The notes beneath the pieces were generated by a model. That model saw nothing but the letters and a program-made list of their open reading frames with translations. It did not search any database and had not been told where the DNA came from. A stretch of DNA of 64,000 nucleotides. Source: Promethearchaeati archaeon SRVP18_Atabeyarchaeia-1 (GTDB lineage Archaea; Asgardarchaeota; Atabeyarchaeia; Atabeyarchaeales; Atabeyarchaeaceae). Of this stretch, positions 51,595 to 63,868 are shown piece after piece. Location: positions 800,001 to 864,000 of the forward strand of contig CP147779.1 in assembly GCA_037308085.1 (NCBI GenBank), read 5' to 3'. Both the position numbers and the translations under genes were made by a program. The first letter of the stretch is position 1. Every line of letters starts with the position of its first letter.

Positions 51595-52563
51595 CTATTC
51601 AAATGACTTCTTCAGCAGTTCAACATCGACTCGGCCAGCATGGTACAGTTTGCCAGTCTTCAAGTCATTGATGGTTATCTCGGCGGGTGCAAAGAGTCCC
51701 GGGTCGATCTTGTAGAAATCATATCCCGCTGCTTTGAATGTCTGATGGAATGGCCTGCCGTAGTCTTTTGAAGACGATGATGGGACTTTGTTTATTATGT
51801 CTGAGAGATCTTCTTCCTCAGCTTCGACGGTCAGGTATACTCTTCCTGCTGCAAGTATCACGTCGTTTGTTCTGCCCATTGCCTTTGCGGAATTTGGATG
51901 GATCGGTGCTATCGGTGCTACTCCACACGCGTGCCTTATCTTCTTGGGATCAAAGCCGACCTCGGACAGCTTGTGTATCCCAGTTTCCACGACTCTGCCG
52001 GAAATCTGAACGGAACCAACAACAGAGCTGGTGGGCGCGACAATCACATAAAGATCCGAGTACGAAACAAGACACTTGCCTGCTATTGTTTCAACTATAT
52101 CGTTGTCGACGGTGTGGTCCGTCTCAATCACTATCACGGCCTGTTTTGCCTTATCTTCATAGGAGATTTTCTCGTAGATCTCCTTGGGTTCCAGAGATAG
52201 AGCTCTCGCAGGGCCCGAACCCATCCCGAAGATCTTCTTTTCCTTGTCCTTTATTCTCCACCCCGCAAACTGGGAACCCAGCGTGGCGATGGCTGGGTAG
52301 CCTGTCTCCACAAAGATTGAGGGCAGAATTAAGCCTCCGCCGTAGTCAATCATCGATAGACTTGCTGTTCCAAGTCCACCTAGACAAACCTCAGTCACAA
52401 ACCTCCCCGCATTGAAGCTTCCCTTCGCTTCTATACCGGCATCAAGCACGGTAGCTCCGTTTTCCGTTCTTGTTACCTTGATCCTTAACTCATCTGCATA
52501 CTCTATCATTTCCTGCACTATCGGTAGAGCGCTAGAGTTGACACTAACATCATTTTCCGCCAT
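51595..52563 (-). CDS. mch: methenyl-H4MPT cyclohydrolase
   Basis: GSQFAGW, GSGPARAL, GSVQISGRVVETG, GRTND, DFYKID..FAPA. Confidence 0.96.
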   Translation of the reverse strand: MAENDVSVNSSALPIVQEMIEYADELRIKVTRTENGATVLDAGIEAKGSFNAGRFVTEVCLGGLGTASLSMIDYGGGLILPSIFVETGYPAIATLGSQFAGWRIKDKEKKIFGMGSGPARALSLEPKEIYEKISYEDKAKQAVIVIETDHTVDNDIVETIAGKCLVSYSDLYVIVAPTSSVVGSVQISGRVVETGIHKLSEVGFDPKKIRHACGVAPIAPIHPNSAKAMGRTNDVILAAGRVYLTVEAEEEDLSDIINKVPSSSSKDYGRPFHQTFKAAGYDFYKIDPGLFAPAEITINDLKTGKLYHAGRVDVELLKKSFE

Positions 52564-52754
52564 AGAATGGTGGTCTCCTCAAGTTAAGCCAGTTCCTAGA
52601 TTCGCTTCAAACACAAGAAATACCTTTCCTTGGTACCATCCTATATGGCTTTGGTATCGCAGGGATGACACCAGAGCGGCGATGTAGCTTATAATCAGTG
52701 CGAGGCCGCGTCTGCCACAGACCAGAAAAAGTAGAGGCAAGCAAATACATGATC

Positions 52755-53555
52755 CTAGGCTTTCAGGTAGAGTTCCCCTTTTCCACCGTCTGCGAGGTCT
52801 CCGACGAACTTATTGAAGGGTCCACTTATCTCTTCGCCGTCTTCCTCGCTAGTCCTTGTGCTCGGGACTTTTCCTTCGCTCTTGAAAGATGGGAGTACTT
52901 CAGCGATTCTGCCTAGGATGATGATCTTTCCTTTGGTCATCTCTCCGCCGGCTCGAGGAGCAGCGTCTTTGTGTACTACTATGACTCCACCTTTCAGGTG
53001 TATGCCTGCCATGGCGCCGACGCTGCCTTTGACGACTATCGTGCCATTGGACATCCATGAACCGATCTCGTTTCCGGCGTTTCCCTCGACGAGTATGGTT
53101 CCTCCTGAGGTTCCTCTCCACTCTCCGCGGTACGAGGCGCCCAGGTAGCTTCCGGCGTTTCCTTTGATTGTAATCTCGCCGCCTTTCATCAACGCCCCAG
53201 CCCAGTCCCCCGCGTTTCCTTCGACGGTTATCTTGCCGCCTCTCATGTTGTTGCCTACGTGCATCCCAGCGCTTCCTTTAATTATGATTTCGCCGGCAGT
53301 CATGCCTTCGCCGACTCTCTTAACGGTAGGGATGTCTCCCTGTATGACTATGCGGATATCTTCTGGCTTGTCGACCTTTATTCCCTTAACGTCGAAAACA
53401 TCCTTGAGTTTGAGCTGCCTGTTTCCTCTGAATATAGTTAGACCTAGTATTTGTTCTACTGTTTTTCCAGCAACTTTGTCTGGGCTTATTACTTCAGCTT
53501 CGATAGGGACTTTGCTATTGATACTCTTGGGGACGAGAATGATTTCTTGGACCAC
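52755..53555 (-). CDS. fwdC: formylmethanofuran dehydrogenase subunit C
   Basis: GXGXG beta-helix repeats; YRGEWRG. Confidence 0.95.
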   Translation of the reverse strand: MVQEIILVPKSINSKVPIEAEVISPDKVAGKTVEQILGLTIFRGNRQLKLKDVFDVKGIKVDKPEDIRIVIQGDIPTVKRVGEGMTAGEIIIKGSAGMHVGNNMRGGKITVEGNAGDWAGALMKGGEITIKGNAGSYLGASYRGEWRGTSGGTILVEGNAGNEIGSWMSNGTIVVKGSVGAMAGIHLKGGVIVVHKDAAPRAGGEMTKGKIIILGRIAEVLPSFKSEGKVPSTRTSEEDGEEISGPFNKFVGDLADGGKGELYLKA

Positions 53556-53607
53556 GAGATTTCTTCCTCCATCGAGTAGAATTCGGCGCGATCTACTATA
53601 TTATCCC

Positions 53608-55335
53608 TTACTTCTTTAGTTCCATCTTCACAGGAGCTGGGTTGACTAGGTATTCATCCTGTACAGGGTAGTTCTGGAGGTTTACCGTGTAGTATTTCAT
53701 GAATTTGTCCTTAAGATCTTCGTATACTGCCTTTGTCCAGTCATCAGGAACCTCTATGTCGAGCCAGTGGGTTCTGCCAATTGGCGAAGCTACAACCTCA
53801 CCATCCTTGACTACGATCTGGCCACGAGCAATTGTGTATTTGGCGTTCTTGAAGGCTTTCTCGACGGCTTCAGGGTTCTGGGATGGATTAATCTTGACAG
53901 GATCTAGATCATAAATCGCTACATCAGCGTCGGCACCCACACCTAAGTGCCCCTTATTCTTCATTCCAACGGCCCTGGCGATCCCCGCTCTTGTGATTAT
54001 GGCGATTTCGGAGATGCTGTATTCTCGGTCATAGTTGGGTAGTGTTGTCTTCGATGTCGCCCGCTCGTGTACTTCCTTTAGCATGGCTTCCCTTTTTTTC
54101 TTGCTGACTAACCAAGATATAATGGTTGGATAACTCGTGAAAGGTCCACCATTGGGATGATCAGTCGTCAAGTACATCCTCCAAGGGTCTTTGACTCCTA
54201 GCGCGATTTCGAGTCCCACGGCCCACTGGATTGCGTTGACTCCGGTTCCTTTCTTAATATAGACATATGGGACTATTCCTGCACTTGTTTCGAGTTCAAC
54301 GTCTGCGTTAACCCATTTGAGCCCAGTCAGTTTGTGCAGGTTATACTCCATTGGTCCATCGGCTGTCATAGTTGTTGTGTCGCCGAAGACAACCTGCCCC
54401 ATATCGACTGTGACGTGCTTGTGAGCATTAACATAATTAACTAGTTCATCCGCTGCAGATGAGAAGGTTTTCCAGTCTTCCCCCGCGTAAGCGTGGAACT
54501 GGGCGTGAGTCAGGTGAATGACGGCATCTCTACCGTTCCCTGATGAGTGCGCTATACCCTCCACAGAATTGAGTGTGTCTAGGGTTACTTTGATGTTGCC
54601 AGGGTGACCCAGGTTATTGGGGTGGACATGGATGGTGTGAGGCAGACGTAGTCTCTCATTGACCTTTGCAAGATTTGTTATAACCTCTCTTGGGCTGATG
54701 TCGAAGTAGGGCACCCGATCATCTATTGTATCGCAGTTCTTTCCCCACTTCCAACTCTCAACTCCACCAGGGTTGACCATCTTAATGGCATATCCCTTGG
54801 TAGCTTTGAGCATCCAAGCCACGAAGGCAGTTAGTTTATCAAGATCCTTGTCTTTTATGTAGTCGATTACAAACCAGTTTCCTCCGAAAAGAGGATAGCA
54901 CGCCTTGTCGACAATAGGCATGTCATTAAACTCTTCGTGGACATGTCTTGCTTTTAGCGGTGGCACCGCGGGCTCGATGACAGTCGTCCAACCCATTCTG
55001 GCGTACCTGTAGCCTGTGGTGTAAGTGGAGGGAATTGAATAACCGACACCGGATCTCATGCCTTCTTTCTTGAACTCAAAATCCTTTCTGTGATCCTCAG
55101 GTCTCAGGAGTCTTCCAGCATCAACCTTTGGTCCCGCAATATGAGTGTGAACGTCTACTCCTCCAGGCATTACGATGCATCCACTCGCATCTATGACCTT
55201 AGAATCAGTCGCTTTGACATGAGTCTCATCGACGATCCTGCCATCCTTGATGCAAACAGTGATCTTCTCTCCGTCGGCATTGTTCGCTGGATCGTAAACA
55301 AGACCATTCTTGATTATTATGGCATTGTTCGGCAT
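53608..55335 (-). CDS. fwdA: formylmethanofuran dehydrogenase subunit A
   Basis: DVHTHIAG, KMVNPGG, TTMTADGP, TTDHPNGGPF. Confidence 0.97.
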   Translation of the reverse strand: MPNNAIIIKNGLVYDPANNADGEKITVCIKDGRIVDETHVKATDSKVIDASGCIVMPGGVDVHTHIAGPKVDAGRLLRPEDHRKDFEFKKEGMRSGVGYSIPSTYTTGYRYARMGWTTVIEPAVPPLKARHVHEEFNDMPIVDKACYPLFGGNWFVIDYIKDKDLDKLTAFVAWMLKATKGYAIKMVNPGGVESWKWGKNCDTIDDRVPYFDISPREVITNLAKVNERLRLPHTIHVHPNNLGHPGNIKVTLDTLNSVEGIAHSSGNGRDAVIHLTHAQFHAYAGEDWKTFSSAADELVNYVNAHKHVTVDMGQVVFGDTTTMTADGPMEYNLHKLTGLKWVNADVELETSAGIVPYVYIKKGTGVNAIQWAVGLEIALGVKDPWRMYLTTDHPNGGPFTSYPTIISWLVSKKKREAMLKEVHERATSKTTLPNYDREYSISEIAIITRAGIARAVGMKNKGHLGVGADADVAIYDLDPVKINPSQNPEAVEKAFKNAKYTIARGQIVVKDGEVVASPIGRTHWLDIEVPDDWTKAVYEDLKDKFMKYYTVNLQNYPVQDEYLVNPAPVKMELKK

Positions 55336-55490
55336 GTGTCCAAGACCACCCTATGTACGGTCAGCTTTTCTAGAAGGAATCTTTTCTTAATTGATAAGGG
55401 TTATGCTGCACGCCATAATCATTGTGCGCATTCATCATGACGACTCAGGCGATAATCTGAATTATCAAAGTGATAAACTTTTGTCAACTC

Positions 55491-56699
55491 TTATGTTTTG
55501 CCTAGGATGACCTGACCTGACCTTTGTGAAGGCTGGTGTAGGGCAAGTCCTGGCTTGTACCCCGTGAGCTTGCCGAGTTCAGATGCAAATCCATAAAATA
55601 TCCTCGATAGCTGGATGCCCTTTGGGCAGTTTTCGTCGCACTTTCCACAGTTGACGCACGTATCTCCCATGTGTACTAGTCTTGTTGCATGCAAGAGTAG
55701 TGGGTCAATGGTTTTTATCTTCTTAAGAAGAATACAGTCCTTGCACCAGCAAACTGGGCAGGCACGTACACAGAGTCCGCATTTGGTACAGGGGTCGAGC
55801 ATTGCTTTCAATTGAGCGAACCGCTTGTTTCCTTCAAGTCTGGCAAGTTCCTCATTCTGTTCTTCAAGTCTTTTGTCGGCGCCCTTCTCCATGTCCCTAA
55901 TGACTGAGTCTTTCTGCTCCTTTTCTGAGACATCCGAACTGCTTAGAGAGATTAGCATTCCTTGGCTTTTTGCCAGCTTGATACTCGTAGCCCCCCTCTC
56001 TGTGACGGGTCTAATCAAGATGTTTGGGTTTGCCGAGGGGCTCCTGCGCCAAGCTGAGATGCTGATGTCGCACGTAGGTGGCTCACGATTGCCACATCTT
56101 GTGCAGCATTCCCGCAGTCTCACGTCCTTGCCAAGCTTCAGTGGTGCAATAGTCCCCGAAGTTGCTTTGACCGCTATTTCACTGGGTGTTATCTCACAAG
56201 ACTCGATTTTCGATTGATCTATTCCTTGTTTCTTTATAGCGTTGGCTAAGTCTAGGAAAGACACGCTTCCTGGACATTCCAGGCCGATAATGAATAGGTT
56301 CCCAAACGATACCTGATTTCTCTTCGACAGTTCGACAAGCGCCTCAATCTCGCAAGGACGCGCTACTAAGGCGACCTTTTTGTCGAAGCATCCACCAAGT
56401 TGAGAGTGAATAATCTTGGGAACGCTAAGTAGTCTTGGTAGCCCGACCACCAGATATTGTGAGAGGAGACGGTAGTCGAGGCTCGAGACATCAGAAGAGG
56501 CTTCAACTGAGACAGCCTGCATTCCGCCGCCTGGCTTCTTCTCGGTGAAGGTCAGAAATGCATCCACGATCCCACCATCCAGCAATGCTTTGTAGAGCGA
56601 CTTGATCGTGGTTTCCACTGGACGACCGCGGTTTTCGTCACTGATTCGGCATGTGATGTACGATCTGTCCTCACTCACCTTCACCAACTCCATATTCAA
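55491..56699 (-). CDS. FdhB/FrhB-family (F420-interacting-type) subunit with C-terminal 2x[4Fe-4S]
   Basis: ARPCEIEALVELSKRNQ, IIGLECPG, LRECCTRC, CTKCGLCVRACPVCWC, CVNCGKCDENCP. Confidence 0.85.
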   Translation of the reverse strand: MNMELVKVSEDRSYITCRISDENRGRPVETTIKSLYKALLDGGIVDAFLTFTEKKPGGGMQAVSVEASSDVSSLDYRLLSQYLVVGLPRLLSVPKIIHSQLGGCFDKKVALVARPCEIEALVELSKRNQVSFGNLFIIGLECPGSVSFLDLANAIKKQGIDQSKIESCEITPSEIAVKATSGTIAPLKLGKDVRLRECCTRCGNREPPTCDISISAWRRSPSANPNILIRPVTERGATSIKLAKSQGMLISLSSSDVSEKEQKDSVIRDMEKGADKRLEEQNEELARLEGNKRFAQLKAMLDPCTKCGLCVRACPVCWCKDCILLKKIKTIDPLLLHATRLVHMGDTCVNCGKCDENCPKGIQLSRIFYGFASELGKLTGYKPGLALHQPSQRSGQVILGKT

Positions 56700-56704
56700 A
56701 GTTC

Positions 56705-56785
56705 GTAATCATAATCATCGTAAGGTGTATTTGTCCCCGCCATACCCTGGCAAACAGGGTAAGTCCCATTCATGACACATCTCTG
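56705..56785 (-). promoter_or_regulatory. candidate SECIS element in the mvhD 3' UTR
   Basis: GUC-AUGAA...CGAU-GAU tandem G.A-core-like pairing enclosing a perfect UACCCUG/CAGGGUA hairpin, immediately after two UGA-containing genes. Confidence 0.45.
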
Positions 56786-56786
56786 T

Positions 56787-57224
56787 TTACTCATGATGGT
56801 CATCCAGCTTGGCGGGTTCTGCCTTGAAGGGGTTCTGGCCCAAAGACCGGATTATCTCGACGGCTGTCTTGACCACTTCAGCGAATTTCTCTCCTTCTGC
56901 TGATGAGCAATTGTAGAACTGAGCTCTGTCTGCGCCGATTCCCATGAACCCGAGGATCTGCTGTACATGCTTGACTTGGTTCTTCGCGATAATGTTTCCC
57001 TTTTCGTATTCGCAGGTTCCTTCGTATCAGCCTACCACTAGAACGCCATCAGCGCCTTTCCTCAGTGCCCTGATAATCAGATCTCCGTCGACACGCCCGG
57101 CGCAGGGCACACGGATAGTTCTCACGTTCGATGGGTACTGTATTCTTCCGATCCCTGCTGTGTCAGCCGCGCCATACCCTCATTTCCAACAGAGGAACAT
57201 TGCTATCTTTGGTTCGAAAGCCAT
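56787..57224 (-). CDS. mvhD: MvhD/VhuD [2Fe-2S] protein, probable selenoprotein with 2 in-frame UGA (57180-82, 57027-29); absent from the ORF track
   Basis: MAFEPKIAMFLCWK-U-GYGAADTAGIGRIQYPSNVRTIRVPCAGRVD..GADGVLVVG-U-YEGTCEY..SSAEGEKFA; 145 aa ending in TAA. Confidence 0.93.
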
Positions 57225-57250
57225 TTTCACGCGACACCTCTTTCAGTCGA

Positions 57251-59215
57251 CTACTGATCTGCGAATAATGTGTCTATGTATGCTTCGTATTGCTCGTCCT
57301 TGTAGTGTCTAAGAGTAATTGCTGATGAGGGGCATACCGCTGCGCAGGCGCCGCATCCTCTGCAGTCCATTTCATTGACGACGGCAATCCTGTCTTTCAT
57401 GGTTATGGCTCCGTACGAGCATATCTCTGCGCATAGGCCGCATCCAGAGCATCTCTTGTCATCAGCGATCGCGCGTACCAGGGTGATTTCGACTTGCTTG
57501 TTGATCATGGGTGTTCCAGCAGATGAAGCGGCTCCTTTCGCTGTCCCAACCGCTTCGGGGATTGACTTGGGACCTTGGGCAACGCCTGCGATGTACACGC
57601 CAAGCTTCTTTGTATCGACTGGTGCGAGGCACAAGTGGAACTCCTTGACAAAGCCGTCTTTGGCTCGCTCGATCTTCAAAAGTCCTCTTAGGTCATCCTG
57701 CCTTGCAGGGGGAATCATTGCAGTCGAGAGAACCACCATGTCGGCCTCCGTTTCAGAGACTTCGCTAGTGAGAGTGTCTTCAACGGAGAGCAGAAGATTC
57801 TTCGTCAAGGGATCTTCAACAACTTCAGCTACCTTCCCTCGCACGAACCTCACGCCCGCGTTTCTGGTCTCTCTGTTATACTCCTCGTGGTCTCTGCAGG
57901 GGGTTCTGATGTCGATGTAGTAGATCGTGGGCTCAGTATCTGGGTAGTAGTGTTTGACGTATTTGGCGTTCTTGATGGCAGTCATGCAGCAGACTCCGGC
58001 AGAGCAGTACTGATTAGCATCCATGCTTCGTGATCCTACGCACTGTATCATGGCTATTCTTTTGGGGGTCATCAAATCTGAAGGGCGAACTAGCTTGCCG
58101 CCAGTTGGACCATTTGGCGCGGTTATCCGCTCAAGTTCGAGTTGTGTTATGACGTTCTCGTATTTTCCATAGCCGTACTCGCCAATTGGCTTGTACTCCC
58201 TGAACCCTGTGGCAAGCAGGATAACTCCAACGTCTATCTCAACGGTCTTTGGCGCCTGGTCCAGGTTGATGGCATTAGGCTCGCACTTCTTCATGCAAAG
58301 CCTGCACTTTATGCATCTATCCATGTCGATCGTGTAAGTACTCGGCACTGCTTGCGGGAATGGTAGGTAGATAGCCTTTCTTGTTCCAAGTCCTTCGTCG
58401 AACTCGTTCGGCGCGAAGATTGGGCAGACATCGACGCAAGCCCCGCACCCATTGCATTTCTCCCGTTCTACGTATCTCGGTTTTTGTCTGACTGTGACTT
58501 TGAAATCGCCGACATACCCCTCTACTTTCTCAACTTCGCTGTAACTGAGTAGCTCAATGTTATGGTGATGTGCCAGTTCCACCATCTTTGGACCTAAGAT
58601 TCAGATTGAGCAATCATCCGTCGGGTAAGTCTTATTCAGTTTTGCCATATGCCCACCGATGGAAGGTTCACGCTCAACCAGGCACACTTTCATTCCCTTG
58701 TCAGCCAAGTCTAGTGCGGCTTGAAGCCCAGCGACTCCGCCACCAACAACAAGTGCCTTCTGAAGCACTGGTACAATCTTTGTCGGGATGCTCTCAAGCA
58801 ATTTTGCTCGTTCGACTGCCGCCCTGATTAGCGCCTTGGCTTTGATCATTGCTTCTATGGGCTTGTCAGTGTGAACAAAGGTGCATTGCTCCCTGATGTT
58901 TACGAACTCCAAGTAGCTTGGATCTACGCCAGCTTCCTTGAGAATAGTGCGGAACAGTGGTTCGTGAGTCTTAGGGGTACATGCCGCGACTATAACCCTA
59001 TCCAGCTCGTACTCCTTGATCTTGGCCTTGATTAGGGAGGCGCCAGACTCGGTGCAGAGAGAGATATTCTGTGCCGCGATTTTCACTCCTTCCAGTTCAC
59101 CAGCATACTCAACGAGAGCAGAAGTATCAATGACGCCACCGATATTTACTCCTCAACGGCAGATGAAAACACCAATGCTAAAAGATGATTTAGGCTCTCC
59201 CGTTTGTTGACTCAC
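57251..59215 (-). CDS. hdrA: heterodisulfide reductase subunit A, probable selenoprotein with 2 in-frame UGA (59153-55, 58601-03)
   Basis: One 654-aa frame: IGVFICR-U-GVNIGG, GGGVAG, TYPTDDCSI-U-ILGPKM, CVGSR, ferredoxin motifs. Confidence 0.94.
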
Positions 59216-59277
59216 CCCCTAGGCTCCATTGACGTGCTTCGCAGGTAGGTTCCCGCGGAGCTACTTCCAGATTCCTA

Positions 59278-59952
59278 CTATGAGGTCAATTTCGTCGTAA
59301 GCTTCTTGACGGTCTCATCCCAGAAATCAGTGTGTTCTCCAGACCAGGTGACTTCATCGCGTGTGAGCTCCAGTGCGCCCTCCCCTGGGCAGGCATTAAT
59401 GCATGCGCCGCAGAAAAGGCATTTCTTATCGTCGATTGACACTTTCTCTGTCTTCTCCCATGGCTTTGATGACTTCGGAATAGTGATTGCCTTGGTTGGG
59501 CAAATATCCGCGCAAGTTGAGCATCCGCCAGGGCACTTGTCGACGTGTATAGCGATTCTGCCCTTGAAGAACTTGCGTGCCTTATTCCCTGTTCTTTCAC
59601 AGGTAACCTCTTCGTACTTCAACTCAGGAACTGCCTTGCCGTCAACGATCTGAAGCTTCCTTTCGCCGTTTATCTTAAACTCGATTGCCTGAAATGGGCA
59701 GATATAATCACAGACACCGCAGAAAGAGCACTTCCTCTCGTCAACCAGAACTGGAGGTGACTGAACATCCTTTTTCATTGATGCTCCCACAGGACCTCTA
59801 GCAATGGCTTCCTTTGGGCAGGCGGTGACACAGACGCCACACCCGGTGCACTTCTCTCGATTAACGTTAAGCGAAAGCGTAATGTTTAGCATTCTAAGTG
59901 ATGCAGTAACTTTCGACGGATCAACGGTCCTTGTGTATTGGGGTAATGCCAT
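59278..59952 (-). CDS. fwdF: FwdF-like polyferredoxin (4 clusters)
   Basis: Four ferredoxin-type Cys motifs; fwd operon context. Confidence 0.75.
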   Translation of the reverse strand: MALPQYTRTVDPSKVTASLRMLNITLSLNVNREKCTGCGVCVTACPKEAIARGPVGASMKKDVQSPPVLVDERKCSFCGVCDYICPFQAIEFKINGERKLQIVDGKAVPELKYEEVTCERTGNKARKFFKGRIAIHVDKCPGGCSTCADICPTKAITIPKSSKPWEKTEKVSIDDKKCLFCGACINACPGEGALELTRDEVTWSGEHTDFWDETVKKLTTKLTS

Positions 59953-59971
59953 TACTTCACATCCTCCCTAC

Positions 59972-60229
59972 TCACTCTTTGGGCTTTTCGGGTTGTTGAG
60001 AGGGAAACCTGATCTCTAGTGCGTGGCGCGGGCATGCCTCGATGCACATTCCGCAGCCGTCACATAAATCTTGGTTTGTTACTCCGAGTTTGCCGTTCTT
60101 TACTCTCAACACCGCGTTTGATTCCTGTTCTGTAACTATCTTTCCAGTCTTGTTGACTGGGCATGCGATCGTGCAATCGCCGCAGCCGTTGCACTTTCTC
60201 TCAGAGATGGCTATTTGATAGGATGTCAA
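59972..60229 (-). CDS. fwdG: FwdG-like ferredoxin
   Basis: CNGCGDCTIACPVN..V.NG...N.DLCDGCGMCIEACP. Confidence 0.75.
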   Translation of the reverse strand: MTSYQIAISERKCNGCGDCTIACPVNKTGKIVTEQESNAVLRVKNGKLGVTNQDLCDGCGMCIEACPRHALEIRFPSQQPEKPKE

Positions 60230-60715
60230 TCAGGGGCGCCTCCGAGTTGACGCGATAATTCGCACTATCAATAGTGATTTGCGATTCCATTCATATGACG
60301 CTTCCAATAGGTAAGAAACCCTTCGATTGTTCTGCAAGTCTTGTCAGCGCAAGGTAAGCTATCTTTGTGACTTGATTTGGTTTTCGTCATTTTAAGGTTA
60401 ACTAAGAACTTTTCCATCACTCAATTCGGTTCAAGGGAAGCCATTATTCTTCAGATGTTGGAGGTATCGCATCGGCTTTTATACCTTTTTCAGGGGAATG
60501 AGTGTCATTCGTGCCGAGGTGAGAAGTGCGTCTTCTACTCTTGTCGTTCGCAAGTGGCAAGCTCTCGGGACCCGCCTACAAGCGCGTGATAGGAGACCGT
60601 CCAAGTCCTGCGGTGGCAACTGATGTAACAATCCTATGATACACTTTATTAAATCAATCAGTGGGCGAAAGTCATTTATAACAAGACTTCATCTTTTCGA
60701 TGCTGGTTTTATATT

Positions 60716-60991
60716 ATGTGTGGGGTTCTTGATATGGCTAATGATTCAGGTCCCGCTGTAAATACACAGCGATGTCAGGGATGCTCGAATTGCGTTATGG
60801 CTTGCCCAATCAATCAGAAGCTTGACAAGCGCATAATCGAGGGTGAATCACCCAGGTCTGATGACGTTGTGTTAAGGATCAAGAATGGCTCATGCACAGT
60901 CCTCAACAAGAAGCTCTGCCTTCAGAAGAGCTTTGAATGTAAGAGGTGCGAGCAAATCTGTCCGAGGGGCGCCATTCGGGTAATCGAGTGA
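60716..60991 (+). CDS. fwdG: second FwdG-like ferredoxin
   Basis: CQGCSNCVMACPIN..I.NG; second cluster motif with an insertion. Confidence 0.7.
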   Translation: MCGVLDMANDSGPAVNTQRCQGCSNCVMACPINQKLDKRIIEGESPRSDDVVLRIKNGSCTVLNKKLCLQKSFECKRCEQICPRGAIRVIE

Positions 60992-61055
60992 GTTTCTTAA
61001 TATACTAGTATAAGACGCTATAGATGCGAAGAGACGGAAAAGAGGGTTAGTCGGA

Positions 61056-61460
61056 TTGCCTGAGAAGTCGGTTGAGGTTGTCATAATAACTGGCAGAACG
61101 GTGGATCAAGGGGTTGCGATAGAGGGCGGTAAACTCTCGCAGTCCTATGTGAAGGCCGCTGCCATATGCTACATGGATCCAAACGACATGAAGAAGATAG
61201 GGGTCATAACTGGAGACATCATTACAGTCAAGACGAACGCCGGGCAGGTAATACTACGGGCTGTCAAGTCTGAAGATACGCCGCATGTCGGCCTTGTATT
61301 TATTCCCATGGGTCCGTGGGCTAACCAACTTACTAATCCGGAGACCGATAGTATAGGCATGCCATCATTCAAAGGTATGAAAGGCATAATAGAGGCAACC
61401 CAAGGTGGAAAGATACTGGACGCCGCCACACTAGTCAAGACCGCTTTCCACAAGGCGTGA
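61056..61460 (+). CDS. fwdD: formylmethanofuran dehydrogenase subunit D
   Basis: TGRTVDQG, FIPMGPWAN, GMPSFKG. Confidence 0.95.
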   Translation: MPEKSVEVVIITGRTVDQGVAIEGGKLSQSYVKAAAICYMDPNDMKKIGVITGDIITVKTNAGQVILRAVKSEDTPHVGLVFIPMGPWANQLTNPETDSIGMPSFKGMKGIIEATQGGKILDAATLVKTAFHKA

Positions 61461-61489
61461 GTGGCATTAACACGAGGTGTAAGTGAGAT

Positions 61490-62806
61490 TTGTCACAAAA
61501 GGTAATCGACTCAGTCGTATGCCCGTTCTGCGGCTCTCTTTGCGACGATACGGAAGTTGTAGTCAAGGACGGCAGAATAATCGAAACCCGGAACATGTGC
61601 ATCATGGGAACTCAAAAGCTCTTCGCAAGTCAAGCACCCGAAAGAATCAGAAAACCGATGATACGGGAGAACGGTAGCTTCAAGGAGGTCACACTTGACC
61701 AAGCGATCCAGAGGGCTGCGGAGATACTGGTGAAGTCGGAGAGACCACTTCTTTATGGCTGGAGTTCAAGTGAATGTGATACCAGCAGGGTAGGTTTTGA
61801 GCTTGCTGAAGAGGTTGGCGCTATTATTGATTCGACTGCTTCGGTCTGCCATGGACCTTCCGTTCTCGCCATCCAAGATGTTGGTCTGAGCAGTTGTACT
61901 CTGGGCGAGGTGAAGAACCGAGCTGACCTTATAATATACTGGGGTTGCAATCCTCAACATGCTCACCCAAGACACATGAGCAGATACACTTCATTCGTGA
62001 GAGGTTTCTTCAGAGACAAGGGAGTAAAGGAACGGAGCATAGTTGTGGTAGACGTTCGCAGAACTGATACGGCGAAGCTAGCAACCCACTTTATCCAAAC
62101 CGAATATGACAAGGATTATGAATTACTGGGTGCCCTGAGAGCTGTAGTCAACGGCTATGACATTCTCACCGACAAAGTTGCGGGTGTTCCAAAAGAAAAG
62201 ATAATAGAGCTTGCTAGCATGATGAAGAACTGCGGGTTCGGCATAATCTTCTTTGGCATGGGGTTGACTCAGAGCACTGGGAAGCATAGGAACATAGATA
62301 ACGCGATACAGCTTACCACAGACCTCAACAAATACACAAAGTTCCTGATTATGCCGATGCGTGGTCACTACAACGTGACTGGCTTCGGCGTTGTCGCATC
62401 TTGGATCAGCGGGTACCCGTACGCTGTTGACTTCAGCAGGGGGTATCCGCGGTATAATCCAGGAGAGACAACGGCTAACGATGTCCTGCAGAAAGAGGAG
62501 ATTGATGCGGCGCTTGTCGTGGCATCGGACCCAGTTTCTCATTTTCCGAAGAAGTCGATCGAGTTCTTGGCAAAGATACCTTTGATAGTAATCGAACCAC
62601 ACCCGACTCCAACTACTGAACTTGCTGATGTCGTTATCCCTCCGGCGGTATCGGGAGTGGAAGTTGAGGGGACCGCGTACCGGATGGATAATGTTCCAAT
62701 TCGGCTGAGAAAAGTCGTCGACGCGCCAGACGGCCTCCTTCCAGACAGAGAACTAGTTCACAGAATACTCGAGAAGGTTCGGGAACTGAAGAAGAAGAGA
62801 ACCTAG
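61490..62806 (+). CDS. fwdB: formylmethanofuran dehydrogenase subunit B (Cys form)
   Basis: CPFCGSLCDD, ASVCHGP, KNRAD, HPRH, MRGHYNV. Confidence 0.97.
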   Translation: MSQKVIDSVVCPFCGSLCDDTEVVVKDGRIIETRNMCIMGTQKLFASQAPERIRKPMIRENGSFKEVTLDQAIQRAAEILVKSERPLLYGWSSSECDTSRVGFELAEEVGAIIDSTASVCHGPSVLAIQDVGLSSCTLGEVKNRADLIIYWGCNPQHAHPRHMSRYTSFVRGFFRDKGVKERSIVVVDVRRTDTAKLATHFIQTEYDKDYELLGALRAVVNGYDILTDKVAGVPKEKIIELASMMKNCGFGIIFFGMGLTQSTGKHRNIDNAIQLTTDLNKYTKFLIMPMRGHYNVTGFGVVASWISGYPYAVDFSRGYPRYNPGETTANDVLQKEEIDAALVVASDPVSHFPKKSIEFLAKIPLIVIEPHPTPTTELADVVIPPAVSGVEVEGTAYRMDNVPIRLRKVVDAPDGLLPDRELVHRILEKVRELKKKRT

Positions 62807-63016
62807 TCGGGAAAGAACTAAACTAAACGAAAGCGTCTGGTTCTATCCAGTTCCACACACGAGTTTTTCTTCTTTTTCTTAGCTTAAGGAGACTCCATAT
62901 GACTTTCTCTTTGTGCTCCTCGACTATTCGCGCATTGCGATCAAAATGGTTAATTAGAGGCATGGATAGATTGTAGGGAAGACCTTTAGAACGCTTGGAG
63001 GAGGTTCTAGGGTATT

Positions 63017-63868
63017 ATGACAACGCTTGGCACAGAAAATATCGTGAAAATTGGTGTTTTGAAACTTGGGAACATTGGGATATCACCTCTGCTAGATCTA
63101 ATCTTGGATGAACGAGCAGACAGGGGGGACATTGATATCCGCGTTGTTGGGAGCGGGCCGAAGCTCACTCCAGAGCAAACTCAGGAAGCTGCACAGAAGC
63201 TAATTGAACTCCGCCCTAAGCTTGTCATCGTGTCGAGCCCAAATGCCAGTCTGCCTGGGCCAAGCAGGGCTAGAGAATTGCTGAACGAAGCCAAGATACC
63301 GACAATTTCGCTGAGTGATGCACCCGGGAAAAAGGCCACTAAAGATATCGAAGAGAAGGGTCAAGGCTACATAATACTGTTAGGCGACCCCCTGATTGGC
63401 GCGCGGAGAGAATTCCTGGACTCTACTGAGATGGCCCTATTCAACTCCGATGCCATCAGAGTACTTTCCATAACTGGCGCCATGCGACTAATAATGAGAG
63501 AAGTCGATAGCGTTGTTGAGCAGATCAAGCAGGGCAAGTCGATCCAGCTTCCAAAGGTAGTTGTGGACGGCAAAACAGTCGTCAATTCCGCTGAGTTCAA
63601 GAACCCCTATGCTCGCGCTAGGGCCATAGCGGCCTACGAGATGACTGGCAAAGTTGCGGAGCTGAATACCCAAGCATGCTTCATTCTCAAGGAACCTCAG
63701 GAATATATTCAGATGGCCACCGCGGCTCACGAGATGATGCGACAGGCAGCGATGCTAGCCGAGTCTGCGAGGGAGATGGAGAAATGTGGAGACTCAGTCT
63801 ACAGACAGCCACACAAACGTGACGGAACGCTCGTAAACAAGAAATCATTGATGGAGAAGCCCCAATAG
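63017..63868 (+). CDS. mtd: F420-dependent methylene-H4MPT dehydrogenase
   Basis: KLGNIG..LDERADR, SPN..PGP, IGARREFLD..EMALFN, AAHE. Confidence 0.95.
   Translation: MTTLGTENIVKIGVLKLGNIGISPLLDLILDERADRGDIDIRVVGSGPKLTPEQTQEAAQKLIELRPKLVIVSSPNASLPGPSRARELLNEAKIPTISLSDAPGKKATKDIEEKGQGYIILLGDPLIGARREFLDSTEMALFNSDAIRVLSITGAMRLIMREVDSVVEQIKQGKSIQLPKVVVDGKTVVNSAEFKNPYARARAIAAYEMTGKVAELNTQACFILKEPQEYIQMATAAHEMMRQAAMLAESAREMEKCGDSVYRQPHKRDGTLVNKKSLMEKPQ

Follow-up and report, generated by a model that had tools for sequence, protein, structure and literature searches.

Two in-frame UGA codons in each gene of the hdrA-mvhD pair of Atabeyarchaeia-1 and a predicted common eukaryote-like SECIS element

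The genome of Promethearchaeati archaeon SRVP18_Atabeyarchaeia-1 (Asgardarchaeota; Atabeyarchaeia) is complete and consists of a single contig of 2,808,651 bp (CP147779.1, abbreviated here to C1), of which the 64,000-nucleotide (nt) stretch C1:800001-864000, hereafter the window, was analyzed. The window harbors two adjacent genes, hdrA and mvhD (vhuD), each of which contains two in-frame UGA codons, and a candidate selenocysteine (Sec) insertion sequence (SECIS) element is located where the second of these genes ends. The features of the pair, in window coordinates and with Sec given as U, are as follows.

57251..59215, minus strand: hdrA, 654 codons, with a GTG start, a TAG stop, and TGA at codons 21 and 205
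59153..59155, minus strand: hdrA UGA codon 21, in the context FICR-U-GVNIGG, located at the second of the two Cys in the N-terminal CxCG motif
58601..58603, minus strand: hdrA UGA codon 205, in the context TYPTDDCSI-U-ILGPKM, the canonical HdrA Sec position
56787..57230, minus strand: mvhD/vhuD (FlpD family), with a start at GTG 57230 or ATG 57224, a TAA stop at 56787-56789, and two in-frame UGAs
57180..57182, minus strand: mvhD UGA codon 17 (15 from ATG), in the context IAMFLCWK-U-GYGAADTAGIGR (CWK-U-GYGAAD)
57027..57029, minus strand: mvhD UGA codon 68 (66 from ATG), in the context GADGVLVVG-U-YEGTCEYEK
56764..56803, minus strand: eukaryote-like SECIS (loki-type, type I), with AUGA at 56803-56800, the 5′ arm at 56799-56791, and GA at 56765-56764
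56790-56776, minus strand: SECIS apical loop of 15 nt, GUAAACAGAGAUGUG, which starts with GUAAAC and includes the mvhD UAA stop
56775-56766, minus strand: SECIS 3′ arm with one bulged A, forming a 9-bp stem with 56799-56791

Translation of the minus-strand open reading frames (ORFs) yields a single open hdrA frame once TGA is counted as a sense codon, and a preliminary description of this DNA, made from the sequence alone, was correct in stating that both frames continue through their UGAs to stops of TAG (hdrA) and TAA (mvhD). The hdrA product contains Pfam FAD/NAD-binding and Fer4 (ferredoxin) domains, and its residues 13 to 650 match HdrA of Methanococcus maripaludis (chain 9sfi_A) with an E value of 3e-215, the solved HdrA chains overall giving values of 1e-210 to 3e-215. 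The top NCBIfam model is HdrA2, with a score of 800 bits that is below its cut-off of 1100 bits. In the alignment to the solved chains, U205 is opposite X (the code for an unknown residue) in the sequence DDCAM-X-ILAPKM of 9sfi_A, this X being Sec197 of M. maripaludis HdrA, which is part of a Cys-Sec pair located between the flavin adenine dinucleotide (FAD) and an Fe-S cluster (PMC13518236). The column of U21 is occupied by Cys in 9sfi_A, 8rvu, and 5odc, and also in all four Cys-type HdrA paralogues of the same genome.

The mvhD gene, separated from hdrA by a spacer of 26 nt on the minus strand, specifies a protein of the FlpD/MvhD family (Pfam, E value of 4e-45) which matches VhuD/MvhD chains in the PDB with E values of 1e-38 to 1e-27 and the NCBIfam VhuD model with 149 bits, below the cut-off of 215 bits. 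The ATG at 57224 is more likely to be its start than the GTG at 57230, and the preliminary numbering of the two UGAs as codons 15 and 66 is right when counted from that ATG (17 and 68 from the GTG). Both UGAs align with the two X residues of the M. maripaludis VhuD chain 9sfi_K. All four TGAs of the pair are situated in columns with Cys or Sec in homologues, which makes chance not a credible explanation, and the earlier claim of UGAs at conserved Cys positions is borne out at each of the four sites by residue contexts and homologue columns alike. The comparison with Cys orthologues extends to four other HdrA-MvhD pairs encoded by the genome, which possess Cys codons at all four positions. These additional pairs are located outside the window at C1:922792-925525, 1214725-1217208, 1815616-1817253, and 1818706-1822640; one is a fused frame of approximately 800 amino acids (aa), and another represents a shortened HdrA-like/MvhD fusion.

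Were the UGAs real stops, the two genes would be pseudogenes or would produce fragments of 20, 183, and 444 aa (hdrA) and 16, 50, and 79 aa (mvhD), and exactly such fragments are reported by standard gene callers in relatives, in which hdrA is called as products of 129 to 161 aa plus 444 aa and mvhD as a product of 52 to 62 aa or not at all, as the preliminary description had anticipated in stating that annotation splits hdrA and misses mvhD. Furthermore, TGA terminates 426 of the 1151 long ORFs of the genome (37%) and is an ordinary stop, the genetic code not being reassigned. Set against this, the four TGAs are found at identical Cys/Sec columns despite hundreds of synonymous changes between lineages, being retained in relatives from other samples with 80 to 91% protein identity (CP147780.1, at 80% identity, is the closest named relative of mvhD), and purifying selection acts on each segment between the UGAs. 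Comparison of hdrA with that of Atabeyarchaeia-2, whose genome comprises 2,756,679 bp according to the main text of the genome paper (PMC11291895), revealed 82 synonymous and 30 nonsynonymous codon differences between the UGAs and 193 and 74, respectively, after the second UGA; the corresponding values for mvhD were 29 and 3 between the UGAs and 21 and 19 after the second. The excess of synonymous differences in every segment between or after the UGAs argues that the frames are translated through them. As three of the sites additionally coincide with experimentally solved Sec positions, and as the genome encodes an apparently full Sec pathway together with a covarying SECIS (see below), the interpretation of the UGAs as genuine stops is barely credible.

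The four TGAs cannot be attributed to assembly error, which is excluded by independent assemblies: each of the four sites is spanned by contigs from a separate wetland study, in which no TGA is altered. In addition, a 238-nt contig spanning 58476-58713, from a metatranscriptome library that may also hold DNA, is identical across 58601-58603. A wetland assembly (X2) differs at 57037-57056 by two substitutions and deletions of 1 and 2 bases, a net in-frame change of 3 nt a few codons before the second MvhD Sec position, the TGA being unchanged.

The distribution of the UGAs was assessed across the Asgard phylum, in which the number of TGAs per HdrA homologue ranges from one to four. Among the 30 Asgard hdrA loci that represent the best matches of an Asgard genome search, position 205 is TGA in all 30, and at position 21 there are 22 cases of Sec and 6 of Cys; the combination of Sec21 and Sec205 (22 of the 30 best loci) is the commonest form, with a few loci adding Sec at Cys54 or Cys79. 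Of 201 Asgard genomes searched, dozens possessed an mvhD gene with two TGAs. The suggestion that two Sec residues in each protein are notable consequently does not stand. The alternation at position 21 (22 versus 6) indicates that Cys is functionally tolerated there and speaks for a further alternative, according to which near-cognate decoding supplies mostly Cys, or some other standard residue, at the UGAs, if only under selenium limitation, with Sec as just one of two outcomes; the inserted residue is, moreover, not readable from sequence. Such decoding is nonetheless very improbable in view of a dedicated Sec pathway that appears to be whole and a SECIS at the expected place, and the four Cys-encoding HdrA-MvhD pairs could serve when selenium is absent. 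These Sec and Cys sets mirror the Sec/Cys isoenzyme sets of Methanococcus as outlined in PMC11097638.

With regard to the machinery, the genome encodes SepSecS (467 bits) and EFSec/SelB (289 bits), both above their cut-offs, and the two genes are located, together with that of a PSTK-like kinase, within C1:191-200 kb. The SelD gene (C1:940244-941300, outside the window) itself contains an N-terminal in-frame TGA in the context EHG-U-SCK, and directly after its TGA stop is a type II eukaryote-like SECIS with AUGA, an 8-bp stem, the ministem CUAC/GUAG, and GA. A regular-expression search of the genome for genes encoding VhuU (DPUxxC) and PrxL returned only noise. Sec machinery is thus present, and the independent assemblies retain TGA, rather than TGC or TGT, at the sites, so that neither of the two findings named beforehand as telling against Sec was made.

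The element at the mvhD 3′ end is the signal to which the recoding is ascribed. Type I eukaryote-like SECIS (eSECIS) elements of Asgard archaea have been defined by AUGA directly 5′ of a 7- to 15-bp stem, a loop of 8 to 20 nt with an A-rich start, and [G/A]A directly 3′ of the stem (PMC11227280), and the present element agrees with that type in its AUGA, its singly bulged 9-bp stem, its loop of 15 nt, and its GA. In an alignment of 14 Asgard vhuD 3′ ends (A1), compensatory changes were observed in all nine stem pairs, 91% of stem cells were paired compared to 23 to 44% with slid partners, and none of 500 shuffles reached the observed score. RNAalifold independently returned the same helix, and vhuD loci from other Asgard families have an element of identical layout in the corresponding position. 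An Rfam search of the whole window at the gathering threshold identified no family, Rfam being without a model for this SECIS type.

The stretch is, furthermore, conserved as RNA. The last five mvhD codons are kept at the nucleotide level in four Atabeyarchaeia-type lineages, even where the stop has moved upstream, and in the RNAalifold structure of these aligned 3′ ends they are paired with the stretch that forms the 3′ arm. In three relatives (L172/L026, L023, and L173/L020), the mvhD stop, UAG or UAA UAG, occurs 6 to 7 codons earlier, and the sequence AAUGAC...CAYGAGUAAAC, homologous to window 56790-56806, is still kept after it; its homologue in the window constitutes the last five mvhD codons. 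Conservation past the early stops implies that this stretch is maintained as the 5′ arm and loop of the SECIS and not as protein.

A first reading of the SECIS, with the core GUC-AUGA at 56775-56769 and GA at 56735-56734, was wrong and was rejected because no helix follows that AUGA and because covariation identifies the stretch as the 3′ arm of the real stem. Three matches of this erroneous motif elsewhere (C1:751927, 1557221, and 1736705) are the 3′ ends of TnpB-like ORFs and not SECIS elements. These ORFs (approximately 440 to 490 aa; C1:~750600-752040, ~1555960-1557340, and ~1735370-1736830, all outside the window) have conserved 3′ ends that fold as a G-C-rich hairpin, RUGAAUACCUGUAC...GGCGGGAC, and one of the three copies contains in-frame TGAs, one of which lies inside the conserved TnpB-homologous part.

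A single SECIS appears to be common to both cistrons. The spacer of 26 nt is too small to accommodate a SECIS, and hdrA ends in UAG, so that one element serving both genes is the best reading, and the hdrA-mvhD pair is in that case most likely transcribed as one polycistronic mRNA. A covariance model built from A1 (R1), which includes the SECIS of the window itself, gave 52.4 bits for this element. With filters off, R1 revealed no second SECIS in the 64-kb window, the next best match scoring 12.7 bits and those near hdrA 6.4 to 7.7 bits, and a whole-genome search produced one further match only, of 18.7 bits. It may instead be supposed that Sec is inserted at all four sites while hdrA relies on a signal of its own, as yet unrecognized, within its coding sequence or its 62-nt leader, the mvhD SECIS serving mvhD alone. 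Such a signal would be favored by the specificity of R1 for vhuD-type elements and by the long reach, 1.8 and 2.35 kb past a stop codon, otherwise required of the mvhD SECIS. The low scores of the filter-free search, the size of the spacer, and the lack of a UGA stop in hdrA, as expected if a downstream SECIS reaches this gene, argue to the contrary, as do published surveys (PMC4989117, PMC11227280), in which every Lokiarchaeota hdrA-vhuD pair, and nearly every Asgard one, was accompanied by a single SECIS. A separate hdrA signal is, therefore, considered very unlikely.

We propose that hdrA and mvhD are very probably intact selenoprotein genes in which two UGAs each are read as Sec, served by one shared SECIS. 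The Sec machinery, the conservation of the TGAs under purifying selection, the solved Sec sites, the covarying SECIS, and the independent assemblies all support this reading, and with it the preliminary one of tandem HdrA and MvhD proteins with two Sec residues each. Sec-tRNA(Sec) would be produced by PSTK and SepSecS, using selenophosphate from SelD, and EFSec, an elongation factor of the archaeal/eukaryal type, would deliver it. Recoding would be directed by a single kink-turn SECIS (AUGA, 9-bp stem, GUAAAC loop, GA) that overlaps the mvhD stop and is predicted to act on UGAs 226, 379, 1800, and 2352 nt upstream, in the latter two cases past the hdrA UAG stop. In the proteins, to judge by alignment, U205 of HdrA would represent the canonical Cys-x-x-Sec partner adjoining the bifurcating FAD, and U21 would take the place of a Cys of the HdrA N-terminal iron-sulfur domain. 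The MvhD Sec residues would occupy the same positions as those of methanococcal VhuD, whose [2Fe-2S] cluster feeds HdrA. The cofactor roles of U21, U17, and U68 are accordingly putative, as is the insertion of Sec at the four UGAs, both being deduced from sequence.

Several observations weigh against this proposal. Of the Sec genes that the preliminary description had listed for verification, SepSecS, EFSec, and SelD were confirmed, while the candidates for the remaining two are below their cut-offs. The PSTK-like kinase scores 147 bits, under the curated cut-off of 290 bits, and its identification is weaker. The tRNA-Sec candidate, located beside SepSecS, scores 21.3 bits (range, 21 to 31) compared to an Rfam cut-off of 47; it possesses a perfect UCA anticodon arm (CUUCAAA) and T arm, and its acceptor and variable arms are interrupted, this intron-broken state of the gene being the reason for the low score. 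Across the whole genome, ARAGORN identified no tRNA-Sec, whether or not introns were allowed, and two scans with patterns of a 9/4 or 8/5 tRNA bearing a UCA anticodon returned noise only; a whole-genome Rfam tRNA-Sec match at 569375 proved to be an intron-containing tRNA-Val. A Sec tRNA has been reported for the Atabeyarchaeia-1 genome (PMC11291895). R1, being specific to vhuD-type elements, could miss a differently shaped second SECIS for hdrA. Finally, cotranscription of hdrA and mvhD is presumed from gene spacing, and the available RNA contigs (run X7) cover parts of hdrA only and do not bridge the two genes. ARAGORN detected 9 tRNA genes in the genome without introns and 22 when introns were allowed, a low number for a complete genome of 2.8 Mb, from which it follows that most tRNA genes are interrupted or atypical.

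In addition to the SECIS itself, folding suggested a larger structure at the mvhD 3′ end, which is composed of the following features.

56743..56761, minus strand: side hairpin directly 3′ of the SECIS GA-C, UACCCUG / UUUGC / CAGGGUA
56736..56816, minus strand: whole three-way element, with the closing helix CCCGCCA (56816-56810) / UGGCGGG (56742-56736) around the SECIS and side hairpin

The closing helix and side hairpin are both present in single-sequence folds of 12 of the 14 Asgard vhuD 3′ ends, and a thirteenth (L189) folds the side hairpin without a clean closing helix, which brings the side hairpin to 13 of 14. Closing helices elsewhere differ in sequence (CUGCUGC/GCGGCAG, CCGAA/UUCGG, CCGAAU/AUUCGG, and AGCU/AGCU), and the stems of the side hairpin vary in a compensatory way among relatives and other Asgard families (CCC/GGG, CUC/GAG, CCA/UGG, and CUU/AAG). 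Its loop in Asgard elements is often (A)AAGCR, and the SelD SECIS of this genome (C1:~941260-941360) has the same predicted layout with the loop AAAAGCA. As judged from these folds, the closing helix appears to be conserved across Asgard families. It is conceivable, if rather doubtful, that the Asgard SECIS forms the middle arm of a three-way junction, flanked by the closing helix and a G-C-rich side hairpin. Pattern scans for the side hairpin in metagenomes gave at least 120 matches of a chance-like character, none of those listed adjoining mvhD, and a genome-wide fold scan for SECIS shapes with a three-way junction gave 287 unspecific matches. A description of the side hairpin was found neither in the text of PMC4989117 and PMC11227280 (figures and supplements aside) nor by full-text search. 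If the three-way junction were real, the side hairpin could dock EFSec or a factor that substitutes for SBP2, could enable a single element to recode as many as four to six UGAs spread across more than 2 kb and two cistrons, or could be a vestige of the GAA_A-type SECIS of Euryarchaeota, with its three G-C pairs. The side hairpin and closing helix are, as such, a possible small addition to the known SECIS and are offered as a lead only.

The hdrA-mvhD pair is embedded in a divergent fwd cluster (window 51595-63868) flanked by mch and mtd, and the gene order of this fwd/hdrA-mvhD cluster is kept in relatives. The minus strand carries, in order, a small ferredoxin, an FwdF-like polyferredoxin, hdrA, mvhD, an FrhB/FdhB-like gene, fwdA, fwdC, and mch, and the plus strand carries a ferredoxin, fwdD, fwdB, and mtd. 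Two of these neighbors are specified below.

55491..56699, minus strand: FrhB/FdhB-like gene with a 2x[4Fe-4S] domain, the next gene of the operon (Pfam FrhB_FdhB_C, E value of 6e-15, plus Fer4)
61490-62806, plus strand: fwdB, with Cys in the context TASV-C-HGPS

The genes of the window include no hdrBC, mvhAG/hydrogenase, or fdhA, and the arrangement suggests that the HdrA module is wired directly to formylmethanofuran dehydrogenase. The Cys of FwdB is opposite X (unknown residue) in M. maripaludis FwdB (9sfi_Q), which substantiates the earlier remark that FwdB here employs Cys in place of Sec; the protein carries Sec at that position in Methanococcales, and Asgard archaea have a Cys form of FmdB/FwdB (PMC11227280).

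For gene annotation, the consequence is that in the output of standard pipelines hdrA is broken up into two or three parts and most of mvhD is missing, as a result of which metabolic reconstructions under-count intact electron-bifurcation modules in Asgard genomes. A single eukaryote-like SECIS is presumed to act in the recoding of multiple UGAs from two cistrons, which bears on the origin of the eukaryotic Sec machinery. With its closed genome and clean covariation, the locus offers a convenient reference for shared-SECIS recoding and opens no new question.

The arrangement closely resembles that described for Lokiarchaeota (Mariotti et al. 2016, PMC4989117), in which a multi-Sec HdrA, with the canonical position close to residue 200 always among its Sec sites, and a two-Sec VhuD are encoded by genes that are always in tandem with a tiny spacer, the hdrA stop being UAG or UAA and never UGA. 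A single lokiSECIS (AUGA, 9-bp stem, A-rich loop, GA) is located only downstream of vhuD, near or overlapping the coding end, and was proposed to serve up to six UGAs over approximately 2 kb (PMC4989117). Sec-type VhuD canonically contains two Sec residues (Wilting 1997, as cited in PMC4989117). The pair examined here shares the common strand, the short spacer, the non-UGA hdrA stop, and the single AUGA...GA SECIS overlapping the vhuD end, while its SECIS differs in having a 15-nt loop with a GUAAAC start and a 3′ arm with a bulged A, in contrast to the 11-nt loop with an AAAAA start of the Loki element. It also differs in its host, Atabeyarchaeia, a lineage unnamed in that paper, and in its position inside an fwd cluster. 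In a survey of 227 Sec-using Asgard genomes (Huang et al. 2024, PMC11227280), HdrA and FrhD/MvhD/VhuD were the most numerous selenoprotein sequences, always encoded by neighboring genes with a common type I eSECIS-like element, and the hdrA/frhD SECIS loops included G[U/G]AAA variants. Atabeyarchaeia are not mentioned in the text of that survey, whose SECIS models comprise a lower stem and internal loop, the side hairpin not being described in the text.

For the genome itself, the main text of the genome paper lists HdrA, a Prx-like protein, SPS, and VhuU as selenoproteins with eukaryote-like SECIS elements and reports hdrA to be one of the most highly transcribed genes of metabolism (Valentin-Alvarado et al. 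2024, PMC11291895); VhuD/MvhD is not named there as a selenoprotein. Because only one hdrA of the genome has in-frame TGAs, the selenoprotein HdrA of that paper must be the product of the gene at 57251..59215. The double-Sec HdrA-MvhD pair with one SECIS is, therefore, an already described Asgard arrangement in a published genome. Alignment to the M. maripaludis system (9sfi) shows the same positions for U205 and for the two Sec residues of MvhD, and the Atabeyarchaeia-1 gene neighborhood fits the finding that HdrA, VhuD, and Fwd of methanogens are contained in one physical Hdr-(Vhu/Fdh)-Fwd assembly. The methanococcal system is distinguished by a Cys at the HdrA position of U21 and by a SECIS of the GAA_A archaeal type, and the Atabeyarchaeia-1 locus, in turn, is without vhuAGU, hdrBC, and fdhA and possesses an FrhB/FdhB-like gene.

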